In this document: positions 4,442 to 59,148 of the stretch, in pieces
Layout of the letters: the number at the start of each line of letters is the position of its first letter
Numbering within the stretch: the stretch's first letter is position 1
NCBI GenBank assembly: GCA_021647505.1
Contig: JAKIUN010000001.1
Span: forward strand, 97,828-161,827
DNA from: Gammaproteobacteria bacterium
Lineage (GTDB): Bacteria; Pseudomonadota; Gammaproteobacteria; SZUA-152
Direction: 5' to 3'
DNA: 64,000 nucleotides
Made by a program: the position numbers and the translations under genes
Notes under the pieces: generated by a model
Seen by the model: the letters and a program-made list of their open reading frames with translations, nothing else
The model's database searches: none
Told to the model about the DNA's origin: nothing

Positions 4442-5893
4442 TTATTTACGCCAGAAGGCCGGGCTGAGCAATACCAGCAGGGTGAAGATTTCCAGCCGCC
4501 CCAGCAGCATGGCGAAGCACAACATCCACTTGGCGACATCATTGATGGAGCTGTAGTTGGCGCCCACTTCGCCGAGGCCCGGGCCGAGATTGTTCATGGT
4601 CGCAGCGACGGCAGAAAAGGCGGAAACCTGATCCATTCCGGTGGCCATGATGACCAGCATAATGACGGCGAAGGAGCCGACATAGAGTGCAAAAAATCCC
4701 CACACCGCATTGATGACGTGTTCCGGCACGGGTTTGTTGCCGATCTTGACCGGACGCTGGGCATTGGGATGGATGAGGCGAAACACCTCGCGCATACCCT
4801 GTTTTATCAGCAACAGGAAGCGGATCACCTTGATGCCACCACCGGTGGAGCCGGCACAGCCGCCGATAAAGCTGGTGAACAGCAACAGTACCGGTAGAAA
4901 ACCGGGCCAGGCGTAGTAATCGGCTGTCGTGAAGCCGGTGGTGGTGCCGATGGAGACGGCCTGGAATATGCCGTGATGCAGGGAAGTGGCGAGGCCATCG
5001 AAGGTGCCGGTGAAGTACAGGTAGAGACTGGAAATGGTCGCACTGGTCGCGAGTACAGCGGCGTAGGTGCGTACCTCTGGATCCTGCAGATAGGGGCGTG
5101 GGCTGTTACCGCGCCAGGCGACAAAGTGAATGGCGAAATTGATTCCGGCCAAGATCATAAAGACCACCGCCACGGACTCGATGGCGGCGCTGTTGAAATA
5201 GCCTATGCTGGCGTCGTGGGTGGAAAAACCGCCGATGGCGATGGTGGAAAAGCTGTGGGCGATGGCGTCGAAGGGTGTCATGCCCGCCAGCCAGTAGGCG
5301 GTGGCGCAGGCCACGGTGAGGCCCAGATAGATATACCACAGGGCCTTGGCGGTCTCGGTGATACGCGGCGTGAGCTTGGCGTCCTTCATGGGGCCCGGCG
5401 TCTCAGCGCGATACAGGGACATGCCACCGATACCCAGCATGGGCATGATGGCTACCGCCAGCACGATGATGCCCATGCCACCCATCCACTGTAATTGCTG
5501 ACGATAGAACAGGATTGAGTGTGGCAGATCATCGATGCCGGTGATCACCGTGGCGCCAGTGGTGGTCAGTGCAGAGATGGACTCGAAGACAGAATCTGTC
5601 AACGACATTTGTGGATAGTCCGAGAGTATAAAGGGCACCGAGCCGGACAGGCCCAGCACCAGCCAGAACACCACCACAATGATAAAACCACCACGCAGGC
5701 GTACCTCCATGTTGGCGTTGCGTACCGGCAGCCACAGCACCGTGCCCAGGCTGAGGATGGCGGAAAAGGCGGTCAGAAAGGGGACGATGGCACCGTCGCC
5801 GTACCACAGGCCGACGGCTACCGGTGGCAGCATGCTGAGGCTGAAAACCATCATCAGCAGGCCGACGATGCGTTGTATGGTGTCGCGTTGCAT
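4442..5893 (-). CDS. trkH: Trk-type potassium uptake membrane subunit TrkH
   Basis: 483-aa polytopic protein with repeated pore-loop motifs (QWMGGMGIIV, IAIGGFSTHD, IGTTTGFTTAD, GSTGGGIKVIRF). Sits directly downstream of trkA. Confidence 0.93.
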   Translation of the reverse strand: MQRDTIQRIVGLLMMVFSLSMLPPVAVGLWYGDGAIVPFLTAFSAILSLGTVLWLPVRNANMEVRLRGGFIIVVVFWLVLGLSGSVPFILSDYPQMSLTDSVFESISALTTTGATVITGIDDLPHSILFYRQQLQWMGGMGIIVLAVAIMPMLGIGGMSLYRAETPGPMKDAKLTPRITETAKALWYIYLGLTVACATAYWLAGMTPFDAIAHSFSTIAIGGFSTHDASIGYFNSAAIESVAVVFMILAGINFAIHFVAWRGNSPRPYLQDPEVRTYAAVLATSATISSLYLYFTGTFDGLATSLHHGIFQAVSIGTTTGFTTADYYAWPGFLPVLLLFTSFIGGCAGSTGGGIKVIRFLLLIKQGMREVFRLIHPNAQRPVKIGNKPVPEHVINAVWGFFALYVGSFAVIMLVIMATGMDQVSAFSAVAATMNNLGPGLGEVGANYSSINDVAKWMLCFAMLLGRLEIFTLLVLLSPAFWRK

Positions 5894-5899
5894 GATGCG

Positions 5900-7273
5900 T
5901 TACAGGAAGGTGGCGCTGACCTGGAACAGGCGCTCCACGTCTGGGATACGCTCCTTGTCCACGACGAACAGGATGACGTGGTCTTCGGCCCGAATCACCG
6001 TATCATGATGGGCGATGATGACTTCGTCTCCGCGCACGACGGCGCCGATGCTGGCTCCCGGCGGCAAATCGATGTCCTCGATGCTGCGATCGACTACGCG
6101 CGAAGACGATTTGTCGCCATGGGCCACTGCCTCGATGGCCTCGGCGGCGCCGCGGCGCAGTGAATGCACGGCAGTGACATCGCCACGGCGCACATGGGTG
6201 AGCAGGCTGCCAATGGTGGCCTGCTGCGGCGAAATAGCGATGTCGATGATGCCGCTCTGCACCAGGTCGACGTAGGCCGCACGGTTGATCAGCGCCATCA
6301 CCTTTTTGGCGCCGAGGCGTTTGGCGAGCATCGCGGAGAGGATATTGGCCTCGTCATCGTTAGTGACGGCACAGAACACATCGGTGTGGTTGATGTGTTC
6401 GTCCAGTAACAATTCCTCATCAGCGGCATCGCCGAGCAGCACCAGGGTCTTTTCCAGTTCCTCGGAGATCTTTTTTGAACGCTCTGGATTGTGGTCGATG
6501 AGCTTGACCTGATACTTGTCTTCCAGGGTCTTTGCCAGGCGGATACCGATATTGCCGCCGCCGGCGAGGATGATACGCTTGACCGGCTTGTCGAGGCGCC
6601 GCAGCTCCTTCATGACGACGCGAATATGGCGCTTGGCGGCAATGAAAAACACTTCGTCGTCGGCCTCGATGACCGTATTGCCCTCGGGTACGATGGCCTG
6701 TCCGCGGCGGTAGATGGCGGCGACACGGGTCTCGATGCCTGGCATGTGTTCGCGCAGGGCCCTCAGCTCATGACCGACCAGCGGGCCACCGTAATAGGCT
6801 TTCACTGCGACCAGCTGTACCTTGCCGCCGGCAAAATCGAGTACCTGCAGGGCTCCCGGATGTTCGATGAGACGTTGTACATAGTCGGTAACCAGCTGCT
6901 CGGGGCTGATCAGCACGTCCACCGGCAGTGCCTCCTGAGTAAATAATTGCGGATGCGAGAGGTAGCCGACGCTGCGCACACGGGCGATCTTGGTGGGGGT
7001 GTGGAACAGGGTGTAGGCGACTTGGCAGGCGATCATATTGATCTCGTCGCTGTTGGTGACGGCGAGAATCATGTCGGCATCTTCGGCGCCGGCACTGGCC
7101 AGCACCTCTGGGTGGGCTGCCTCGCCCTGCACGGTGCCGATGTCGAGACGGTCACGCAGGGCATCGAGCTTTTCGCTGTCGACATCGACAACGGTAATGT
7201 CGTTAGCCTCGCTGGCGAGGACTTCTGCGACCGATGTACCGACCTGGCCGGCGCCGAGGATGATGATTTTCAT
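5900..7273 (-). CDS. trkA: Trk system NAD-binding subunit TrkA
   Basis: [19 protein letters not shown] Rossmann motif and a second RCK repeat ([15 protein letters not shown]). Length of 457 aa is typical. Confidence 0.95.
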
Positions 7274-19634: not shown

Positions 19635-21596
19635 TTAAATCGCCGCAGCTGCGGGCTGTTGCGGGTTATGGGCCGTCGGTAGTGGCGTATTAATTGCCTT
19701 CAGAATGTCGTTGATGGTACCCAACTGCTGCATAAGATCCTCACTCTGGGCCTCTAGCAGGGCGATATTTTCCGCAAGCTTTTCCCGTGATTTCTTTATT
19801 TTTTGCAGATTGGCGAGGCGTTTTTCCAGCTGTTGCTTGCGTTCCCTGATGCGTACCGCCAGCGGGCGCATGACCGAGCCCGCCCAGTCCTCGGCGTCCT
19901 GATTGGCGCGAAAGAAAATATTGCGCGCATGGCTCACCATCGAGACGAAGAATTTCTTTACCACGAAACTCTGCTCAGTCATGGTGGTGACGCTGCTATT
20001 GCGGAATTCTTCGGCCTTTTTGTACAGCTGATCCAGCTCGCGGGTGTACGAAGCTGTCGCAAACAAGCTGGGATTAAGGTTGGAAAAGCCGTGTTCGTCG
20101 CGGAAACGGTCATAAATGGACTGGACGATGGCGTTAGATTTTTCGGTCTGGTGGTTGACGTGAGTCATGGTGTCCCGCGCGCCGTCAAAAAAGGTTTTCA
20201 TACCGCCTTTCATGCCGAGGGTGGTCCAGCTGTCGACCATCCCGGCACGGGTTTTGGCGATCAAGTGATCCAGTGAGTCGAGCCCCAGGGATTCCACCAG
20301 GGCAATAAGCTGGCGTTTCAGCACATGGCGGCTGGTCTGGAAGTTTTCCACGTCCTTCTGATAAATATTCTGTTCCATGCGCAGTTTCTGCATGGTTTCC
20401 ATGAGCACGTCTGCGCTTTTTCCGGAGAGGGAGCGCAATTCATCCATCTGTGTCTGGATGTCATCCAGACGTTGAGTGAGCACTCCCTTGGTGCCTTCGA
20501 TCATGGCGCCGATGCGTGAGGTGATGTTGCTGCCTAGCAGCTGTTGCTTGGCGGGCAGGACTTCATTGGAGAGCGTTGCTTCCAGCGCCAGCAGGCCGCT
20601 CTTCTGCAGCAGGGCATCGTCGTTCTTGACCCGTGCCAACAATCCTTTTTGGGCGGTCACCGGGTAGACGTTTCGGCTTTCCACGCCCAGTATGTCGGCG
20701 GTATCGCTGCACTGTTTGTCGATATTGCGCTGTACGGCGGCCTCATCCTGCAATTCATCCCACAGGGTGTCTATCTTGTTCAGTACCACGATGAGTCCCG
20801 TCTGGCGATTGCCACGGAAGGTTCGTGCATGGGTATTCCAGATATCTATATCGCTCTTGGTGGCTCCGGTATCGGCTGCCAGCACAAAGATGACTGCCTG
20901 GGCGTTGGGCAACATGTCCATGGTGAGTTCAGGTTCGGTGCCTATGGCGTTGAGGCCGGGGGTGTCAAGGATCACCAGGCCCTGTTTCAGCAGGGGGTGG
21001 GGAAAGCTGATCATGACATGGCGCCACAGGGGAATTTCGATGCTGACCGGTGGCACCTCGGCCTTTTTTTGTTCTTCTCGGGTGTAGAGGCCGAGCTGAA
21101 TGGCGTTGTCAACGGGAACGGGCTTGGTCTTGATGATTTCCTGAAAGGCCTCGACCATGGCTTGTGGGGAATCGATATCGAGATCGATACTGATCCAGTG
21201 TGCGGGATCCTGCTTGAATTCGCTGATGCTGGTGTCTTCGAGGCGCGTTTCGATGGGTAGCATGCGGATGTAAGGTTTGTCCGTCTTGGCATCGTGAAAC
21301 AGTTCGGTGGGACACATGGTAGTGCGACCCGCCGAGGAGGGCAGCAGCCGTCGTTTATAATTGGCGAAGAAAATGGCGTTGATCAGCTCGGTCTTGCCAC
21401 GTGAGAACTCGGCGGCAAAACCGATGGTGATGTGGTCGGATTCCAGTGCATCAATAATTTCATAGATGCGCAAATCATCTTCCGGAGAACTCATGTCGTG
21501 TGCCGCCAGCCAGTCACGATAGGCGGTGATTTGGCGCCTGGTATTGTCCTTCCAGCGGCTATAGGCGTTGAGTTGTTGTGTGAATTGTTCCTTCAC
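19635..21596 (-). CDS. Bacterial dynamin-like GTPase
   Basis: G1 FSRGKTELINAIF; G3 ILDTPGLNAIG; G4 VLNKID. Long helical C-terminal stalk. 653 aa. Confidence 0.8.
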   Translation of the reverse strand: MKEQFTQQLNAYSRWKDNTRRQITAYRDWLAAHDMSSPEDDLRIYEIIDALESDHITIGFAAEFSRGKTELINAIFFANYKRRLLPSSAGRTTMCPTELFHDAKTDKPYIRMLPIETRLEDTSISEFKQDPAHWISIDLDIDSPQAMVEAFQEIIKTKPVPVDNAIQLGLYTREEQKKAEVPPVSIEIPLWRHVMISFPHPLLKQGLVILDTPGLNAIGTEPELTMDMLPNAQAVIFVLAADTGATKSDIDIWNTHARTFRGNRQTGLIVVLNKIDTLWDELQDEAAVQRNIDKQCSDTADILGVESRNVYPVTAQKGLLARVKNDDALLQKSGLLALEATLSNEVLPAKQQLLGSNITSRIGAMIEGTKGVLTQRLDDIQTQMDELRSLSGKSADVLMETMQKLRMEQNIYQKDVENFQTSRHVLKRQLIALVESLGLDSLDHLIAKTRAGMVDSWTTLGMKGGMKTFFDGARDTMTHVNHQTEKSNAIVQSIYDRFRDEHGFSNLNPSLFATASYTRELDQLYKKAEEFRNSSVTTMTEQSFVVKKFFVSMVSHARNIFFRANQDAEDWAGSVMRPLAVRIRERKQQLEKRLANLQKIKKSREKLAENIALLEAQSEDLMQQLGTINDILKAINTPLPTAHNPQQPAAAAI

Positions 21597-52244: not shown

Positions 52245-52793
52245 TCAGAAACAGGGCTTCTCAGGTGAGGCCTTGAAGCGCTCTACGGAGGCCAGGATTT
52301 CGGCCTTGGCTGCATCGGTGCCGACCCAGCCATCGATCTTCACCCACTTGTTGCTTTCCAAATCCTTGTAATGCTCAAAGAAATGGGCGATCTGATCCAG
52401 CAACAGGGGTGACAGATCTTCCAGCTTTTCCACACCACGATACTGCACCGCCAGCTTGTCCACCGGCACGGCGAGAATCTTGGCGTCAATGCCGGATTCG
52501 TCGGTCATCTCCAGCATGCCCACCGGGCGGCAGCGAATCACCGAACCGCTGATCAGTGGTGTGGGGGTGACCACCAGCACATCCACCGGGTCACCATCTT
52601 CGGACAGGGTGTGAGGCACATAACCATAGTTGCAAGGATAGTACATGGCCGTGTTCATGAAACGATCCACGAACATGGCGCCGGTTTCCTTGTCAACTTC
52701 GTATTTCACCGGATCGCTGTGCGAGGGGATTTCGATAATAACATTAATGTCGTTGGGCACATCTTTGCCGGAACTGACTCGGTCTAGGCTCAT
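52245..52793 (-). CDS. ppa: Soluble inorganic pyrophosphatase (family I)
   Basis: [24 protein letters not shown] and the DAKILAVP motif. 182 aa. Confidence 0.95.
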
Positions 52794-52828
52794 TCTTCTC
52801 TCTCTCCTGAAAATAAAAATCGTCGAAT

Positions 52829-52850
52829 AAAAAAGGCCGACAGGTCGGCC
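52829..52850 (-). terminator. Intrinsic terminator 35 nt upstream of the ppa start codon
   Basis: On the minus strand: GGCCGAC-CU-GUCGGCC followed by UUUUUUAUU. Confidence 0.75.
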
Positions 52851-52854
52851 TTTT

Positions 52855-53009
52855 CCAGCGTAGTGGGTCGAAACAAGATCCGCTTCCGGTTATGGTGCTA
52901 CGCGGCGGTGATCTGCCCCGCTCGATGGAAACAAGGACGGCTTCGCCCAGTAAGCAATTTATACCCACATATTCAGATTAATTCCACCACTGGTTGTGCC
53001 CGTATTGTA
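52855..53009 (-). promoter_or_regulatory. Candidate structured 5' leader or small RNA between pfp and ppa
   Basis: TACAAT -10 box at 53004-53009 (minus strand). CCAGUGGUGG (52993-52984) can pair with CCCACUACGCUGG (52867-52855) as 4+6 bp with a 2-nt bulge. That helix would enclose ~115 nt containing two CUUGUUUC copies, with the terminator immediately 3'. Confidence 0.4.
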
Positions 53010-53138
53010 ACGCAGATAAGGTGGCCAAGAAACCGCTTATTCCATACAAAAATAGCGGATGCTGAGTGCAAGATGTTGGTTTCATAGTGGAATCAAGAGC
53101 TTGTGCTATGCGCCGTCATGAAGCCACGGATTCAGGTC

Positions 53139-54425
53139 TTACTTAAGCTTGAAGGACTTCTTCAGCTTCTTTTTTACCGCCACATTCTTCAGTGTCACGT
53201 ACTGTGGCAGGCCTTTCTTGAAAGGTGGATAATCCTCACCCTGAATCAGCGGCTGCAAATAGGCTCGACAGCGCTGGGTAATGTGAAAACCGTCTTTGCT
53301 GATGTAATTTTCCGGCATCATTTTTTCCCTGTTCGCCACCTTGGCCAAACGCGCCTCGACAATTTTCCAGCGATAGGGCTTGTTGGAGATGCGCTTGATC
53401 GCCGGCATCACGGCATTTTTTCCAGCCAGCGCCATCTTCACCGCCGCTTTGCCGGTGGCGTAGGCCTGCTCCACATCGGTCTTCGAGGCAATATGCCGCG
53501 CCGCACGCTGCAGATAGTCCGCCACCGCCCAGTGATGCTTATAACCCAGCTTTTTCTGAATAATCTGCGCCACTACCGGCGCCACACCACCTAACTGGGC
53601 ATGACCAAAGGCGTCTCGCGCGCCACTCTCGGCGAGAAACTGACCCTTGCTGTTACGCACCCCCTCGGACACCACAATGGCACAACAACCATATTTCTTA
53701 ACCGACTTTTTTACCTGGGCAAGAAATTTACGCTCATTGAACACCACCTCCGGGAATAAAATGATATGTGGTGCATCACCCTCGTTCTCTGCCGCCAAGC
53801 CACCCGCTGCAGCGATCCAGCCAGCATGCCGGCCCATCACCTCCAAGACAAAAACCTTCGTCGAAGTCTTGGCCATAGAGGCCACATCGAAGGCCGCCTC
53901 GCGAATCGATACCGCCACATATTTTGCCACCGAGCCAAAACCGGGACAGTTATCGGTAATCGGCAAGTCATTATCGACCGTCTTGGGAATATGAATGGCC
54001 TGAATGGGATAGCCCAGCGTTTTAGAAAGCTGTGAAATTTTCAGGCAGGTGTCGGCGGAATCCCCCCCCCCGTTATAAAAGAAATAACCGATGTTGTGCG
54101 CCTCGAACACCTCGATGAGACGCTCATACTCGGCGCGATTTTCCGCCAAACCCTTCAGCTTGTAACGGCAGGAACCAAAGGCCCCGGACGGCGTATGGCG
54201 CAAGGCCGCAATAGCACGGGCCGACTCTTTGCCGGTATCAATAAGATCCTCGGTCAACGCACCAATAATACCATTACGGCCCGCATACACCTTGCCGATC
54301 TTGTCCTTGTTTTTGCGTGCGGTCTCGATAACACCGCAGGCACTGGCATTGATCACCGCAGTCACGCCTCCTGACTGCGCATAAAAAGCATTCTTCTTCG
54401 TCATTTTTACTGTCGTTTTCGCCAT
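53139..54425 (-). CDS. pfp: Pyrophosphate-dependent 6-phosphofructokinase (PPi-PFK)
   Basis: AFYAQSGGVTAVINA, FFYNGGGDSADT and IPKTVDNDL motifs. A ~428-aa long-type PFK resembling the PPi-dependent group. I prefer ATG 54425. Confidence 0.85.
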   Translation of the reverse strand: MAKTTVKMTKKNAFYAQSGGVTAVINASACGVIETARKNKDKIGKVYAGRNGIIGALTEDLIDTGKESARAIAALRHTPSGAFGSCRYKLKGLAENRAEYERLIEVFEAHNIGYFFYNGGGDSADTCLKISQLSKTLGYPIQAIHIPKTVDNDLPITDNCPGFGSVAKYVAVSIREAAFDVASMAKTSTKVFVLEVMGRHAGWIAAAGGLAAENEGDAPHIILFPEVVFNERKFLAQVKKSVKKYGCCAIVVSEGVRNSKGQFLAESGARDAFGHAQLGGVAPVVAQIIQKKLGYKHHWAVADYLQRAARHIASKTDVEQAYATGKAAVKMALAGKNAVMPAIKRISNKPYRWKIVEARLAKVANREKMMPENYISKDGFHITQRCRAYLQPLIQGEDYPPFKKGLPQYVTLKNVAVKKKLKKSFKLK

Positions 54426-54797
54426 GACAAACTCCCTGCCGTTCAAATAATTCGGATCTTTTTGTGCGCTTTCCCGCAAAGAAAAACTGCCGTAGCCACA
54501 ACACTATTCTTTCCAGAGTGCCTGCGCAGTAAGAAAGAGTATTAACACAACCAGCGGGGAGCTGTTCAATAAATCTGCACAAAAAACAAAATGATTTTCT
54601 ACGCCAAGAGAAATGTCCTCCACATTTGTTATGCAGTATGCGGAAGATATACAGGAAAAACAGCAAAAATATGAGAAAACACCCTTTTTCCGCATTGACT
54701 TGCGCATATTGAAAGGGGTAGGTTTACAGCGATAAACAGTAAGCAGCACTCATTGGCAACGCTTGTTTATGCGCTTGACGAAGGGAGACAGTCGATT

Positions 54798-55976
54798 ATG
54801 AGGATTGTCCTGATTGGTGCGCCAGGATCTGGCAAAGGCACCCAGGCCAAGAAACTGGTCAGCCGCTACGGGGTACCACAGATTTCCACTGGCGACCTGC
54901 TGCGCGCCGCCGTCGCCGCAGAAACACCCCTCGGCCTGCAAGCCAAGGCCGCCATGGATGCAGGGCAACTGGTCTCGGATCAGATCGTACTCGACATGAT
55001 CGAAGAACGCATGGCTGAGCCCGACACAGAAAAAGGCTTCATCCTCGACGGCTTCCCACGCAACATCCCACAAGCTCAGGCACTCGATGCCATGCTGGAT
55101 AAGCTGGGACGCCCGTTGAAAACCGCCATCCTCATCGACGTGGACTTCGACCTGCTGATCCAACGCATCGCCGGCCGTCGCACCTGCTGTAGTTGTGGAC
55201 AGATGTACAACATCTACACCTCTCCGCCGAAAATGGATGGCCTGTGTGATGTCTGTGGCGGCAAGTTGCACCATAGAGCCGACGACAATGAAGACACCAT
55301 CACCAATCGCCTACGCGTTTACGAGGCGCAGACCGCACCACTGATCAACTATTACAAGGCTCAGGGCAAGCGGTATATCGTCGATGGTACGGGCACGCTC
55401 GATGAAATTTTCCAGCGTCTGTGCAATATCATCGATGGATTACCCACCCACGAAAGTCTGGAATCTGCCAGAAAGGCCGCCAGATTTGAACAAACTATTC
55501 AAGAAATGGTGGAAAAGGCCGAAGCCAAGCCCACCCCAGATACGCAAACAACTCCAGTCGCCAAAAAGGAAACCCGGATCATGACGGCAAAAAAGAGAAC
55601 AGCAACGAGCAAGAAGGCGGCGAGCAAAAAATCAGCCGCAAAGAAAAAGATCGCCAAGAAAACCGCCACAAAAAAGAAAGTGGCCAACAAGAAAAAGACT
55701 GTAAAAAAGAAGGTTGCCGTTAAAAAAGCTGTCGCCAAAAAGAAAAAAGCCGCTGTAAAGAAATCGATGAAAAAGAAGGTGGCGACCAAGAAAAAGACGG
55801 CAAAAAAGAAGGTAGCTAAGAAAAAGGTAGCCAAGAAGAAGGTCGCTACCAAGAAAGTATCACCGAAGAAGAAATCTGCAAAGAAAAAGGCCGCCGGAAA
55901 GACGCCTGCGAAGAAGAAGGCCCCGGTCAAGAAGAAAGGGGCAAAGAAGAAGGCCGCAGCCAGAAAAAAGCGCTGA
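54798..55976 (+). CDS. adk: Adenylate kinase fused to a ~175-aa Lys/Ala-rich histone-H1-like tail
   Basis: AAGGGAGA SD before ATG 54798. MRIVLIGAPGSGKGTQA P-loop. Cys4 LID (CCSCGQ...CDVCGG). The Adk fold ends near residue 215. The same frame then continues without a stop through (A/V)KKK repeats to 55976. Confidence 0.85.
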   Translation: MRIVLIGAPGSGKGTQAKKLVSRYGVPQISTGDLLRAAVAAETPLGLQAKAAMDAGQLVSDQIVLDMIEERMAEPDTEKGFILDGFPRNIPQAQALDAMLDKLGRPLKTAILIDVDFDLLIQRIAGRRTCCSCGQMYNIYTSPPKMDGLCDVCGGKLHHRADDNEDTITNRLRVYEAQTAPLINYYKAQGKRYIVDGTGTLDEIFQRLCNIIDGLPTHESLESARKAARFEQTIQEMVEKAEAKPTPDTQTTPVAKKETRIMTAKKRTATSKKAASKKSAAKKKIAKKTATKKKVANKKKTVKKKVAVKKAVAKKKKAAVKKSMKKKVATKKKTAKKKVAKKKVAKKKVATKKVSPKKKSAKKKAAGKTPAKKKAPVKKKGAKKKAAARKKR

Positions 55977-56124
55977 CATAACGAACCACCCCCGGCTTGT
56001 TTCCTGCCGGGGCCAGCCTTACAATCGGGCGCACAGGGTGACTTGTGCGCCCGAGCTGTTTCCGGGCCACCGATTTTCAGCCCCCCCCCCCAGTTTGCGA
56101 ATGCAGGAGTAACCTAGTGCCTAA

Positions 56125-57141
<1,017 letters not shown>

Positions 57142-57172
57142 GTCCCAGGCTACCGCCACCAAGGAGCAAGCT

Positions 57173-57850
57173 GTGCCCCAATCCACCATTTCCAGCCTGT
57201 TCGGCACCTCACCCATCAAGCCCTTGCAGGGGCACATGCAGGTGGTGCAGGTCTGCGTTCAACAGCTGATCCCTTTTTTCGATGCCGTGCTGGCAGATGA
57301 CTGGGACGAGGCCCGCCGCCAACAGGCAGAAGTTTCCCGCCTGGAAAACGAGGCCGACGCGCTCAAGCGCGAACTGCGCCTGAACCTGCCCAACAGCCTG
57401 TTCATGGCCGTGCCACGCCGTGATCTGCTGGAAGTGCTGACCATGCAGGACAAGATCGCCAACAAAGCCAAGGACATCGCCGGACTGATCACCGGCCGGG
57501 AAATGCGCCTCCCTGAGGCCATAGCGCCAACCATCAAGGCCTATGTACAGCGTTCCATCGACGCGTCCGCACAGGCGCAAACGGCCATCAACGAGCTGGA
57601 TGAACTGGTCGAGACCGGCTTTCGTGGCAACGAAGTGAAACTGGTCGCCTCTATCATTAAAACCCTGGATGAGATCGAGGGTGATTCCGACCGTATGCAA
57701 GTAGAAATCCGCGCCCGGTTGTTTGCCGTGGAAAAGGATCTGCCGCCGGTGGAGGTCATCTTCCTCTACCGCATCATCGACTGGATCGGTGACCTGGGTG
57801 ATCTGGCGCAGCGCGTCGGTAGCCGTCTCGAATTAATGTTGGCCAAATAG
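57173..57850 (+). CDS. DUF47/TIGR00153 PhoU-like protein (Pit accessory)
   Basis: Helical 225-aa protein immediately upstream of a PiT transporter, which is the usual pairing. Confidence 0.8.
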   Translation: MPQSTISSLFGTSPIKPLQGHMQVVQVCVQQLIPFFDAVLADDWDEARRQQAEVSRLENEADALKRELRLNLPNSLFMAVPRRDLLEVLTMQDKIANKAKDIAGLITGREMRLPEAIAPTIKAYVQRSIDASAQAQTAINELDELVETGFRGNEVKLVASIIKTLDEIEGDSDRMQVEIRARLFAVEKDLPPVEVIFLYRIIDWIGDLGDLAQRVGSRLELMLAK

Positions 57851-57894
57851 CCAGCTCAGCACTCAATTATTACCGCAAAACGGGAGTTTTTGCC

Positions 57895-59148
57895 GTGGAA
57901 TATGGCCTGATTTTTATCATCCTTGCCTGCCTGTTTGGTTTCTTCATGGCCTGGGGCGTGGGAGCCAATGACGTCGCCAATGCCATGGGCACCTCAGTGG
58001 GCTCCAAGGCAATCACCGTTAAACAGGCGATCATCATCGCCGCTATCTTCGAGTTTGCCGGCGCCTTTCTCGCCGGTGGCCAGGTGACCGCCACCATCCG
58101 CAAGGGCATTATCGATGCCAGCGTCGTCTCTGGCACGCCGGAACTGTTGGTCTATGGCATGCTCGCCTCGCTGCTGGCGGCGGGCATCTGGCTGCTGGTC
58201 GCCAGCCACTTTGGCTGGCCTGTTTCCACCACCCACTCCATCATCGGCGCCATCGTCGGTTTCGCCGCCGTGGGCATCGGTATGGACGTGGTGCAATGGA
58301 GCAAGGTGGGCACCATCGCCATGAGCTGGGTGGTATCACCGCTGTTGGCCGGCTCCATCGCTTTCGCCCTGTTTGTCAGCGTACAAAAGCTCATCCTCAG
58401 CACCGAAGACCCGCTCGCCAATGCCAAGCGTTATGTTCCAGTTTACATTTTCTTCGTCGGCTTCATCATCGCCCTGGTATGCATATTCAAGGGACTAAAG
58501 CATGTCGGGCTGGAACTGAGCACGGCTGAATCCTACAGCATCGCGGTATTAGTGGGCGCCATCACGGCAGCCATTGGCATCGTGATGATTAACCGCCTGA
58601 AATTTGATCCTGAGGCCGATCGTGACTTCCATTTCACCAATGTGGAAAAAATCTTCGCCGTGCTGATGATGATCACCGCCTGTGCCATGGCCTTTGCCCA
58701 CGGCTCTAACGATGTTGCCAACGCCATTGGCCCGGTGGCTGCCGTGATAAGCATTGTCCAAAATGACGGCATGGTGGCGCAAGAATCCGCTCTACCACTG
58801 TGGATTCTTGCCCTCGGTGGACTCGGTATCGTCATTGGCCTGATGACCTATGGCAAAAAGGTCATGCTCACCATCGGCACCCAGATCACCGAACTCACCC
58901 CCAGCCGTGGCTTTGCCGCCACCCTCGCCGCCGCCACCACCGTGGTACTGGCCTCCGGCACCGGGCTGCCCATCTCCACCACCCACACCCTGGTGGGGGC
59001 CGTGCTGGGAGTCGGCTTGGCGCGCGGTATCGCGGCAATCAACCTCAACGTGGTACGCACCATTTTTATATCCTGGGTCGTGACCCTGCCGGCCGGGGCG
59101 ATTCTTTCGATCATCTTTTTCTTCATCCTCAAAGGCATTTTCGGCTGA
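57895..59148 (+). CDS. pit: Inorganic phosphate transporter, PiT family
   Basis: Duplicated GANDVANAMG and GSNDVANAIGP signature motifs. Polytopic. Confidence 0.92.
   Translation: MEYGLIFIILACLFGFFMAWGVGANDVANAMGTSVGSKAITVKQAIIIAAIFEFAGAFLAGGQVTATIRKGIIDASVVSGTPELLVYGMLASLLAAGIWLLVASHFGWPVSTTHSIIGAIVGFAAVGIGMDVVQWSKVGTIAMSWVVSPLLAGSIAFALFVSVQKLILSTEDPLANAKRYVPVYIFFVGFIIALVCIFKGLKHVGLELSTAESYSIAVLVGAITAAIGIVMINRLKFDPEADRDFHFTNVEKIFAVLMMITACAMAFAHGSNDVANAIGPVAAVISIVQNDGMVAQESALPLWILALGGLGIVIGLMTYGKKVMLTIGTQITELTPSRGFAATLAAATTVVLASGTGLPISTTHTLVGAVLGVGLARGIAAINLNVVRTIFISWVVTLPAGAILSIIFFFILKGIFG

Follow-up and report, generated by a model that had tools for sequence, protein, structure and literature searches.

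An adenylate kinase continued in frame by a histone H1-like polycationic tail: a gammaproteobacterial gene fusion that may encode two nested products

The stretch of DNA analysed here (the window, 64 kb: 64,000 nucleotides of the Gammaproteobacteria bacterium assembly GCA_021647505.1, contig JAKIUN010000001.1, positions 97,828 to 161,827 of the forward strand) carries a gene, hereafter adk-H1, in which an adenylate kinase (Adk) is continued in frame by a linker and a long lysine-rich tail resembling histone H1 in composition. The locus raises the question of whether an enzyme of nucleotide metabolism has truly been joined to a polycation and, if so, whether one protein or two are made from the joined reading frame. 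Based on the evidence presented below, we propose, with a probability of about 0.6, that adk-H1 is a nested two-product gene that would encode a 42.8-kDa Adk-H1 fusion together with a free 14-kDa H1-like protein, the tail tethering Adk to a cellular polyanion. The elements on which the argument turns, numbered within the window, are the following.

54781-54787, + strand: Shine-Dalgarno (SD)-like AAGGGAG of the full-length gene, 10 nt 5′ of ATG 54798 (read from the sequence).
54798-55976, + strand: full-length coding sequence for Adk, linker and H1-like tail, 392 amino acids (aa) plus stop, 42.8 kDa, pI 10.3 (translation of the open reading frame, ORF).
54798-55436, + strand: adenylate kinase domain, aa 1-213 (PF00406 and NF001380 above cutoffs, PDB matches, AlphaFold2 model).
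54816-54842, + strand: P-loop GAPGSGKGT, G7-T15 (sequence, invariant columns).
55176-55283, + strand: LID, aa 127-162, zinc-type Cys4 (PF05191 match).
55185, 55194, 55245 and 55254, + strand: codons of the LID cysteines C130, C133, C150 and C153 (invariant in alignment).
55437-55580, + strand: linker, aa 214-261, 48 aa, pI 6.8 (composition, substitution rates, stop counts, AlphaFold2 model).
55499-55525, + strand: bipartite sigma-28-like promoter motif TCAAG-N14-GCCGAAGC (clade conservation; promoter function predicted).
55566-55571, + strand: internal SD AAGGAA, in frame with K257-E258, 9 nt before the internal ATG (codon conservation).
55581-55976, + strand: nested ORF from the internal ATG (M262), 131 aa, Lys/Ala-rich, H1-like, 14.2 kDa (Met invariance, junction motif).
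55788-55859, + strand: tandem 15/30-nt repeats coding for (V/T)AKKK units of the tail (Tandem Repeats Finder).

As read from the sequence, the frame opens with the ATG at 54798 and closes with a TGA at 55974-55976 on the + strand. An earlier note on this DNA had described its first part as a complete Adk with a P-loop and a Cys4 lid, a description borne out by family models: the protein scored 190.8 bits against Pfam PF00406 (ADK; cutoff 26.8), 52.6 bits against PF05191 (ADK_lid; cutoff 26.6), 292.1 bits against the NCBIfam adenylate kinase model NF001380 (cutoff 251) and 255.1 bits against TIGR01351 (cutoff 168). The P-loop and the four lid cysteines are invariant among 38 homologues, as are the catalytic Arg and Asp columns R36, R88, R123, R127, R160, R171, D162 and D163. 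The closest PDB structures are Bacillus-type and reconstructed ancestral Adk, aligned over residues 1-215 and without gaps over residues 1-207; residues 1-213 align end to end with the Geobacillus/Bacillus zinc Adk (1ZIN, 1P3J; NF001380) at an E value of about 1e-66 and share with it the P-loop, the Cys4 lid and the Arg/Asp residues. AlphaFold2, supplied with the 38-sequence alignment, predicted a confident fold for the domain, with a predicted local distance difference test (pLDDT) score of 80-95. These comparisons identify residues 1-213 as a complete and genuine adenylate kinase. Solved Adk chains, in contrast, are all 181-245 aa long, and none bears a 179-aa linker and polycationic tail such as that found in the window.

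Beyond the kinase, the frame continues as the earlier note had outlined, through an acidic/helical linker into about 130 residues of (A/V/T)KKK repeats. The 48-aa linker was modelled as a low-confidence helix over aa 218-241, followed by disorder from about aa 240 to the C-terminus (pLDDT below 50 across most of aa 240-392). The 131-aa tail (aa 262-392), made of (A/V/T)KKK and VAKKK units, consists of 50% Lys plus Arg and 21% Ala, contains no Asp or Glu, and has a net charge of +66 and a pI of 12. Rich in Lys and Ala, free of acidic residues and predicted to be disordered, it falls within the H1-like polycationic disordered class, which is a functional grouping rather than a sequence family. 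It scored 24.1 bits against PF07382 (Hc2; cutoff 40), 9.7 bits against NF038052 (Hc2; cutoff 135) and 26.5 bits against NF038053 (Burkholderia-type H1-like DNA-binding protein; cutoff 80), and no KPAA repeat of the AlgP/PhaF type was found in its sequence. The H1-like label proposed earlier is thus upheld for composition and not for family: as judged from these scores, the resemblance is compositional only, and the tail is not a member of the Hc2, Burkholderia or KPAA families. Lysine codon usage moves from 30% AAG in adk and the linker to 59% AAG in the tail, a shift seen at 55581-55973 and in homologues that may curb long A-runs, which promote ribosome sliding. No further K-rich ORF was found in the 64-kb window. 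In a metagenome-assembled genome (MAG) of Ectothiorhodospiraceae (L003:4001-5200), the basic repeats of the Adk tail are followed by four copies of an acidic repeat, GEEKGQEESSQEK, yielding a block-ampholyte tail.

Relatives with the same fusion, for which the earlier note had advised a search, proved to be numerous. In a protein search of a 5.8-billion-sequence collection whose members stem from NCBI, ENA, JGI and Logan assemblies, the best 120 clusters out of 120 displayed the fused architecture, all of them Adk of 330-510 aa with K-rich tails, and the named clusters carry the label "adenylate kinase" only. A metagenome DNA pattern, degenerate in the third base of the K/E codons and indifferent to whether the upstream frame was open, retrieved 25 independent contigs with Adk-linked junctions, 25/25 of which were fused in frame. 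Among the source environments are hydrothermal vents and sediments (contigs Ga0256830/39 and Ga0316204/09). Among 168 Adk sequences examined, 144 were fused (80 with a Met at the junction and 64 without), which brings the tailed homologues to at least 144; they come mostly from Gammaproteobacteria MAGs. GTDB representatives with the fused form include Chromatiales, Ectothiorhodospiraceae, Thiotrichaceae, Arenicellales, Natronospirales and Thiohalophilus MAGs, a Lamellibrachia tubeworm endosymbiont, a Bathyaustriella symbiont and one Bacteroidetes MAG. About 75 of the best 120 homologues have the junction KE(A/T)xxM(A/T)(A/V)K, the Met of which is invariant in the 38-homologue alignment. Sequences with the junction motif, the window included, form one cluster by Adk-domain distances; because the clustering was by the unweighted pair group method with arithmetic mean on Kimura distances of the 168 Adk sequences, statements about clades are approximate.

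No description of an Adk with a lysine-rich or H1-like extension was found in the searchable literature. The earlier statement that no such Adk was known to be described therefore stands for the searchable literature; in the sequence databases, the fusion is common under the name "adenylate kinase". The architecture is real and recurrent, well past what chance would give. Since the annotation reads only "adenylate kinase", it reveals neither the tail nor the putative nested gene. One family model, NF010381 (PRK13808), an 'adenylate kinase' of 335 positions, is longer than a normal Adk. Some of the tailed homologues span it fully, P0120 aligning over its residues 1-388 to model positions 1-333, and curators have therefore already met extended Adks; the window protein (191.7 bits) and 10 tailed homologues (172-217 bits) all score under the cutoff of 426 and are not members of that family.

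At the amino acid level the linker is loosely constrained, yet it stays open in frame. Its ratio of nonsynonymous to synonymous substitution rates (dN/dS, omega) was 0.17-0.25 among the close relatives of the window and 0.4-1.2 elsewhere, compared to about 0.1 for Adk; the dN/dS of the tail rests on low-complexity repeat alignments and is indicative only. Frame 0 of the linker was devoid of stops in 19/19 loci, compared to 0-8 stops in the other two frames, with 25-50% of linker codons lying one substitution away from a stop and shuffled linkers staying open with a probability of only 0.003-0.26 per locus. Furthermore, clades devoid of the internal Met retain the tail, which can be made there only by read-through from the kinase. 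Taken together, these comparisons indicate that adk-H1 is a real, selected gene fusion.

Whether the tail is also made on its own hinges on signals lying inside the fused frame. The product of the nested ORF has the same sequence as the fusion tail, and the earlier note had pointed to its ATG at 55581, with AAGGA upstream, as a possible separate start. This is the best-supported part of that note's interpretation, in that nucleotide-level conservation of both the SD and the ATG extends through the clade. The ATG (55581-55583) is separated from AAGGAA by a 9-nt spacer; AAGGAG-N9-ATG is found in 20/22 distinct loci, the window and L094 having AAGGAA instead. In those 22 loci, the codon of K257 is AAG in all and that of E258 is GAG in 20, against a background of 30% AAG and 26% GAG in the same genes. 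In a set of 19 diverse loci, AAG was fixed at K257 (19/19), GAG nearly so at E258 (17/19) and GAA fixed at E236 (19/19), whereas none of 39 amino acid-invariant, two-fold-degenerate codon columns of Adk was fixed (0/39; maximum, 16/19 loci). Third-position pairwise identity was 0.36-0.50 in Adk compared to 0.69-0.74 over aa 229-240 of the window protein and about 0.6 at the junction. The stretch from SD to ATG is predicted to lie in accessible, A-rich RNA, with a probability of being unpaired of 0.63 versus 0.48 in adk. A conserved SD and start codon inside an ORF, under nucleotide-level selection, are one mark of an in-frame nested gene, and these are present here.

Further upstream, the linker contains a third conserved element. 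In the window it reads TCAAG (55499-55503), N14 and GCCGAAGC (55518-55525), the most degenerate copy in the clade, with 55 nt between its end and the internal ATG. Across the clade the consensus reads TAAAGAAn-N11-nCCGAAAn, and T[AC]AAGAAn-N11-n[CT]CGAnnn was found in 23/23 clade loci, its spacer constant in length and differing in sequence between groups. The distance from its end to the ATG is 55-58 nt in most loci and 64-79 nt in four. No other occurrence was found on either strand of 48 kb of clade genes, and the background of the relaxed motif in unrelated loci is 0.057 per kb. The codon ahead of the conserved GAA is ACC, TCC or GCC, such that the amino acid varies (T/S/A) and CC is fixed; in L113, all three motifs are retained within a linker peptide otherwise unrelated to that of the window. 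The internal SD, the ATG and the promoter-like motif are thus conserved at the nucleotide level in the clade of the window. Recent recombination was considered as a cause of the low linker dS and rejected, conservation being limited to the motifs, the spacers differing between groups and the dS of the tail being saturated. Clades without the junction Met lack the relaxed motif, L006 excepted: at L006:4627 (Thiotrichaceae NORP103), a locus classed as junction-less, TAAAG-N14-CCCGACA stands close to where the Adk domain ends, and the tail is preceded by a Met (…APAPMAEKAAATK…); these elements may represent a second, diverged set of internal signals.

The motif matches the gammaproteobacterial sigma-28 consensus, TNAAG-N14-GCCGATA (PMC3333780), whose elements are also given as GCCGATAA at -10 and TCTAAAG at -35 (PMC12784957). 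The window copy, TCAAG-N14-GCCGAAG, matches the two elements at 5/5 and 5/7 positions and has both elements at the consensus spacing. We infer from this that the linker harbors a sigma-28-type promoter. Sigma-28 also drives the chlamydial H1-like gene hctB, from a promoter TNAAG-N15-GCC... (Yu & Tan 2003, as cited in PMC3333780), which is a parallel and not a proof. Scans of 54500-56200 on the strand of the gene returned no sigma-70 promoter-like site, and no Rfam family reached its gathering threshold anywhere in the window or E <= 1 in 55300-56170.

It is quite possible, if not what we favor, that the TNAAG-N14-CCGAAA block acts in cis in some other way, for instance as an RNA element, as a standby or S1 site for the ribosome, or as a site bound by a regulator. 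Its -10 part is CCGAAA and not CCGATA, fliA was not found among the window ORFs scanned, and the A-rich context would suit an unstructured translational enhancer. On the other hand, the two parts are 14 nt apart, precisely as in the sigma-28 consensus, the 55-58 nt to the ATG are typical of a 5′ untranslated region, and conservation of two parts around a free spacer is what promoters show; the hctB precedent similarly argues against this alternative.

Where might these signals have come from? In seven split loci (L037, L038, L040-L043 and L047), adk encodes 213-227 aa and, 149-232 nt further downstream, a second, Lys/Ala-rich gene begins with MAKKKTAKKK...; its complete copies encode 98-185 aa, and that of L037 reads as 38 aa. 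Most of these downstream genes have a GGGGAG-type SD and, in L041-L043, a CTATAAT -10 box lies ahead of them. The Adk of the split loci, which belong to more distant Gammaproteobacteria, is 43-48% identical. Split and fused versions of the gene pair being both at hand, the two states therefore coexist in nature, and the split counterparts point to adk having fused with a neighboring gene. The linker of fused loci, 135-240 nt, has the size of the intergenic gap of the split loci. Most likely, the adk stop codon was lost and translation read through into the adjacent H1-like gene, because of which the linker is probably the former intergenic region. Two other split-type loci (L039:~5090-6500 and L044:5162-6532) have a larger gene downstream of adk (at least 345 aa in L039; 456 aa in L044), whose Ala/Lys-rich helical N-terminal part precedes the same KKK-repeat tail, another architecture built with the H1-like module. 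In the metagenome loci L110, L138, L114, L049 and L068, small stand-alone K-rich ORFs without adk upstream start in the context AARGAR-N9-ATG-GCN-GCN-AAR, which suggests that free H1-like genes typically have this SD and start arrangement.

Our proposal may now be stated in full. In the clade of the window, the linker would fill three roles at once, those of an in-frame spacer, a sigma-28-type promoter and the carrier of an SD and ATG. Ribosomes initiating at 54798 would produce the 42.8-kDa Adk-H1 fusion; the free 14.2-kDa H1-like protein would come from ribosomes that initiate at 55581, whether the message is the full-length one or a shorter one begun at the internal promoter. As the linker appears to have kept the expression signals of the old gene, the locus probably makes two products. 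The stop-free frame and the Met-less clades that keep the tail, together with the conserved internal signals, therefore suggest that both the fusion and the free tail are selected. The shared tail would bind polyanions electrostatically, and the fusion would set AMP/ADP/ATP equilibration on a scaffold coated by the free H1-like protein. Rather more speculative, and in our opinion doubtful, is an extended version in which the overprinted intergenic region acts as linker, sigma-28-type promoter and ribosome-binding site, the ratio of tethered to free protein is conditional, Adk sits on the nucleoid or on polyphosphate (polyP), and the arrangement is widespread in uncultured sulfur-oxidising and symbiotic Gammaproteobacteria; if true, it would give the cell an energy buffer, of adenylates or from polyP to ATP, that is organised in space.

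Several observations weigh against the two-product proposal. The internal signals of the window are the weakest of its clade (TCAAG in place of TAAAG, GCCGAAGC, and AAGGAA in place of AAGGAG); L087 and L061 are examples of clade members with the consensus signals. The promoter motif overlaps the predicted helix, so that some protein-level constraint on it is possible. Neither polyP genes nor fliA and flagellar genes were found among the ~40 ORFs scanned in the 64-kb window. Finally, the split loci are distant, as judged from their Adk, and their neighboring genes are different; a single origin of the fusion is therefore something that we infer, and several fusions may be independent, those of L036, L046, L017, L023 and L027 probably so.

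Which polyanion the tail would bind is a separate matter. Nucleoid DNA is the most likely partner, with polyP granules or RNA/ribosomes as alternatives; by analogy with AlgP and PhaF, the tail is predicted to bind such a cellular polyanion, so that Adk would be concentrated there. We consider only tentatively that the fusion serves specifically as a polyP-granule tether, where polyP:AMP phosphotransferase (PAP) or PPK2 would make ADP and Adk would convert 2 ADP to ATP + AMP in a local polyP-to-ATP pathway. AlgP of Pseudomonas aeruginosa associates with polyP granules and DNA, its H1-like tail localising to the granules (PMC9239181); PAP and Adk regenerate ATP from polyP and AMP in Acinetobacter (Resnick & Zehnder 2000, as cited in PMC8776046); PPK1 overproduction was reported to raise Adk-dependent PAP activity (PMC3163519); and the phosphate/pyrophosphate (PPi) neighbors of adk-H1, listed below, would fit such a role. 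Conversely, ppk, ppk2 and ppx were not found among the ~40 window ORFs scanned, the tail is without KPAA repeats, and polycations bind DNA and RNA equally well. In our view, nucleoid DNA is at least as likely a partner of the tail as polyP.

Returning to the number of products, it is unlikely that adk-H1 makes the fusion protein only, with no free H1-like protein, the internal SD, ATG and promoter-like motif being inert relics or constrained at the protein level. The tail has outlasted the Met and motifs in many of the fused clades, which suggests that the fusion alone can suffice, and both the degeneracy of the window's own motifs and the partial location of the promoter-like motif in a predicted helix could be read in the same way. 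Protein-level constraint, however, does not readily account for the fixation of synonymous positions in AAG, GAG and GAA codons against the 0/39 control columns, for a constant CC in a codon whose amino acid varies, or for the three motifs kept in the unrelated linker peptide of L113, and relics would be expected to decay at between-group dS saturation.

Even less likely is that the locus makes, in effect, two separate proteins, a 23-kDa Adk and a small basic protein, with the open linker frame merely tolerated or the linker cleaved. Consistent with this scenario are the linker omega near 1 in several groups, the predicted flexibility of the linker and the conserved internal expression signals. 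In contrast, not one frame-0 stop or frameshift was seen in more than 140 sequences despite stop-prone codons, and clades lacking the internal start need read-through to obtain the tail. An assembly or sequencing artefact (a missing stop or a frameshift past the Adk domain), for which the unusual length and nothing further would speak, is ruled out for practical purposes by the same in-frame architecture in independent NCBI, ENA, JGI and Logan assemblies.

In its logic, the two-product gene that we propose comes nearest to PhaF, AlgP, DdbA and HupB, in which a folded domain bears an H1-like tail, and to infB and clpB for the nesting. In-frame nested genes with internal initiation are known from Escherichia coli in infB (IF2-alpha/beta), clpB (93/79 kDa) and cheA (long/short). 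As in these, adk-H1 is one ORF with a conserved internal SD and start, from which a full-length and a C-terminal product are predicted; unlike in these, the short product would be a former independent gene whose own promoter the linker appears to retain. Mycobacterial HupB consists of HU and a Lys/Ala tail. Streptomyces DdbA, described as H1-like plus DksA-like (PMC3643593), likewise has a low-complexity H1-like module joined to a folded domain; the partner domains of DdbA and HupB, however, act on DNA or RNA polymerase, whereas that of the window protein is an enzyme of nucleotide metabolism. PhaF of Pseudomonas, the H1-like tail of which binds RNA (PMC12818456), shares with the window protein a functional N-terminal domain followed by a disordered, Lys/Ala-rich tail, which in PhaF binds nucleic acid and connects the cargo of that domain to a polyanion. 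It differs in that its N-terminal domain is a granule-binding phasin and not a soluble enzyme, its repeat is KPAA and not (A/V/T)KKK, and a nested internal start is not reported for phaF. AlgP resembles adk-H1 in its disordered Lys/Ala-rich C-terminal domain of similar length and differs in its 25 perfect KPAA repeats plus variants and its helical N-terminal domain of no assigned activity, and the two share no sequence family. Hc2 (hctB) and the Burkholderia-type H1-like proteins (PF07382, NF038052, NF038053) are Lys/Ala pentamer-repeat polycations as well; these are, however, stand-alone proteins not fused to an enzyme.

The remaining features of the region concern the surroundings of adk-H1, which sits in a phosphate/PPi neighborhood (52245-59148); genes were called by a scan of the window.

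52245-52793, - strand: inorganic pyrophosphatase, ppa.
53139-54425, - strand: PPi-type phosphofructokinase, pfp.
55990-56054, + strand: two GC-rich hairpins past the adk-H1 stop, with a 7-bp stem at 55990-56012 and a 13-bp stem at ~56025-56054 (RNA fold, -49.9 kcal/mol, z = -3.9).
56170-57141: hemB.
57173-57850: PhoU_div/DUF47.
57895-59148: PHO4/Pit phosphate transporter.

The order pfp (on the opposite strand), adk-H1, hemB, PhoU_div (DUF47) is conserved in the wider fused clade of the window. As judged from their predicted fold, the hairpins past the stop probably mark the end of the transcript, without a classical T-run; a consensus terminator scan of 54500-56200 returned no site on the strand of the gene, the sole terminator-like site lying on the minus strand inside adk. 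Between the stop of adk-H1 and hemB is a run of 11 C (56081-56091), which could be a site of slippage or phase variation, or a hotspot of sequencing error. Elsewhere, a 653-aa bacterial dynamin-family protein (Dynamin_N) is encoded at 19635-21596 on the - strand, and the rest of the window is ordinary housekeeping: trkA/trkH, rsmB, fmt, dprA, proC, pilT/pilU-like ATPases, an ntrY/ntrX-like pair, rubrerythrin and an MscS channel.

Textbooks present adenylate kinase as the enzyme of energy homeostasis that diffuses freely. The locus described here is an unusually clean natural case of a gene fusion caught in the act, the split and fused states both surviving in related lineages, and its most interesting aspect is the overprinted linker, apparently a peptide spacer and an expression cassette at the same time, with the two-product gene that this implies. 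A large bacterial clade in which Adk is permanently carried on a histone-like polycation suggests that adenylate buffering may be spatially organised in these organisms, on chromatin, polyP granules or ribosomes.

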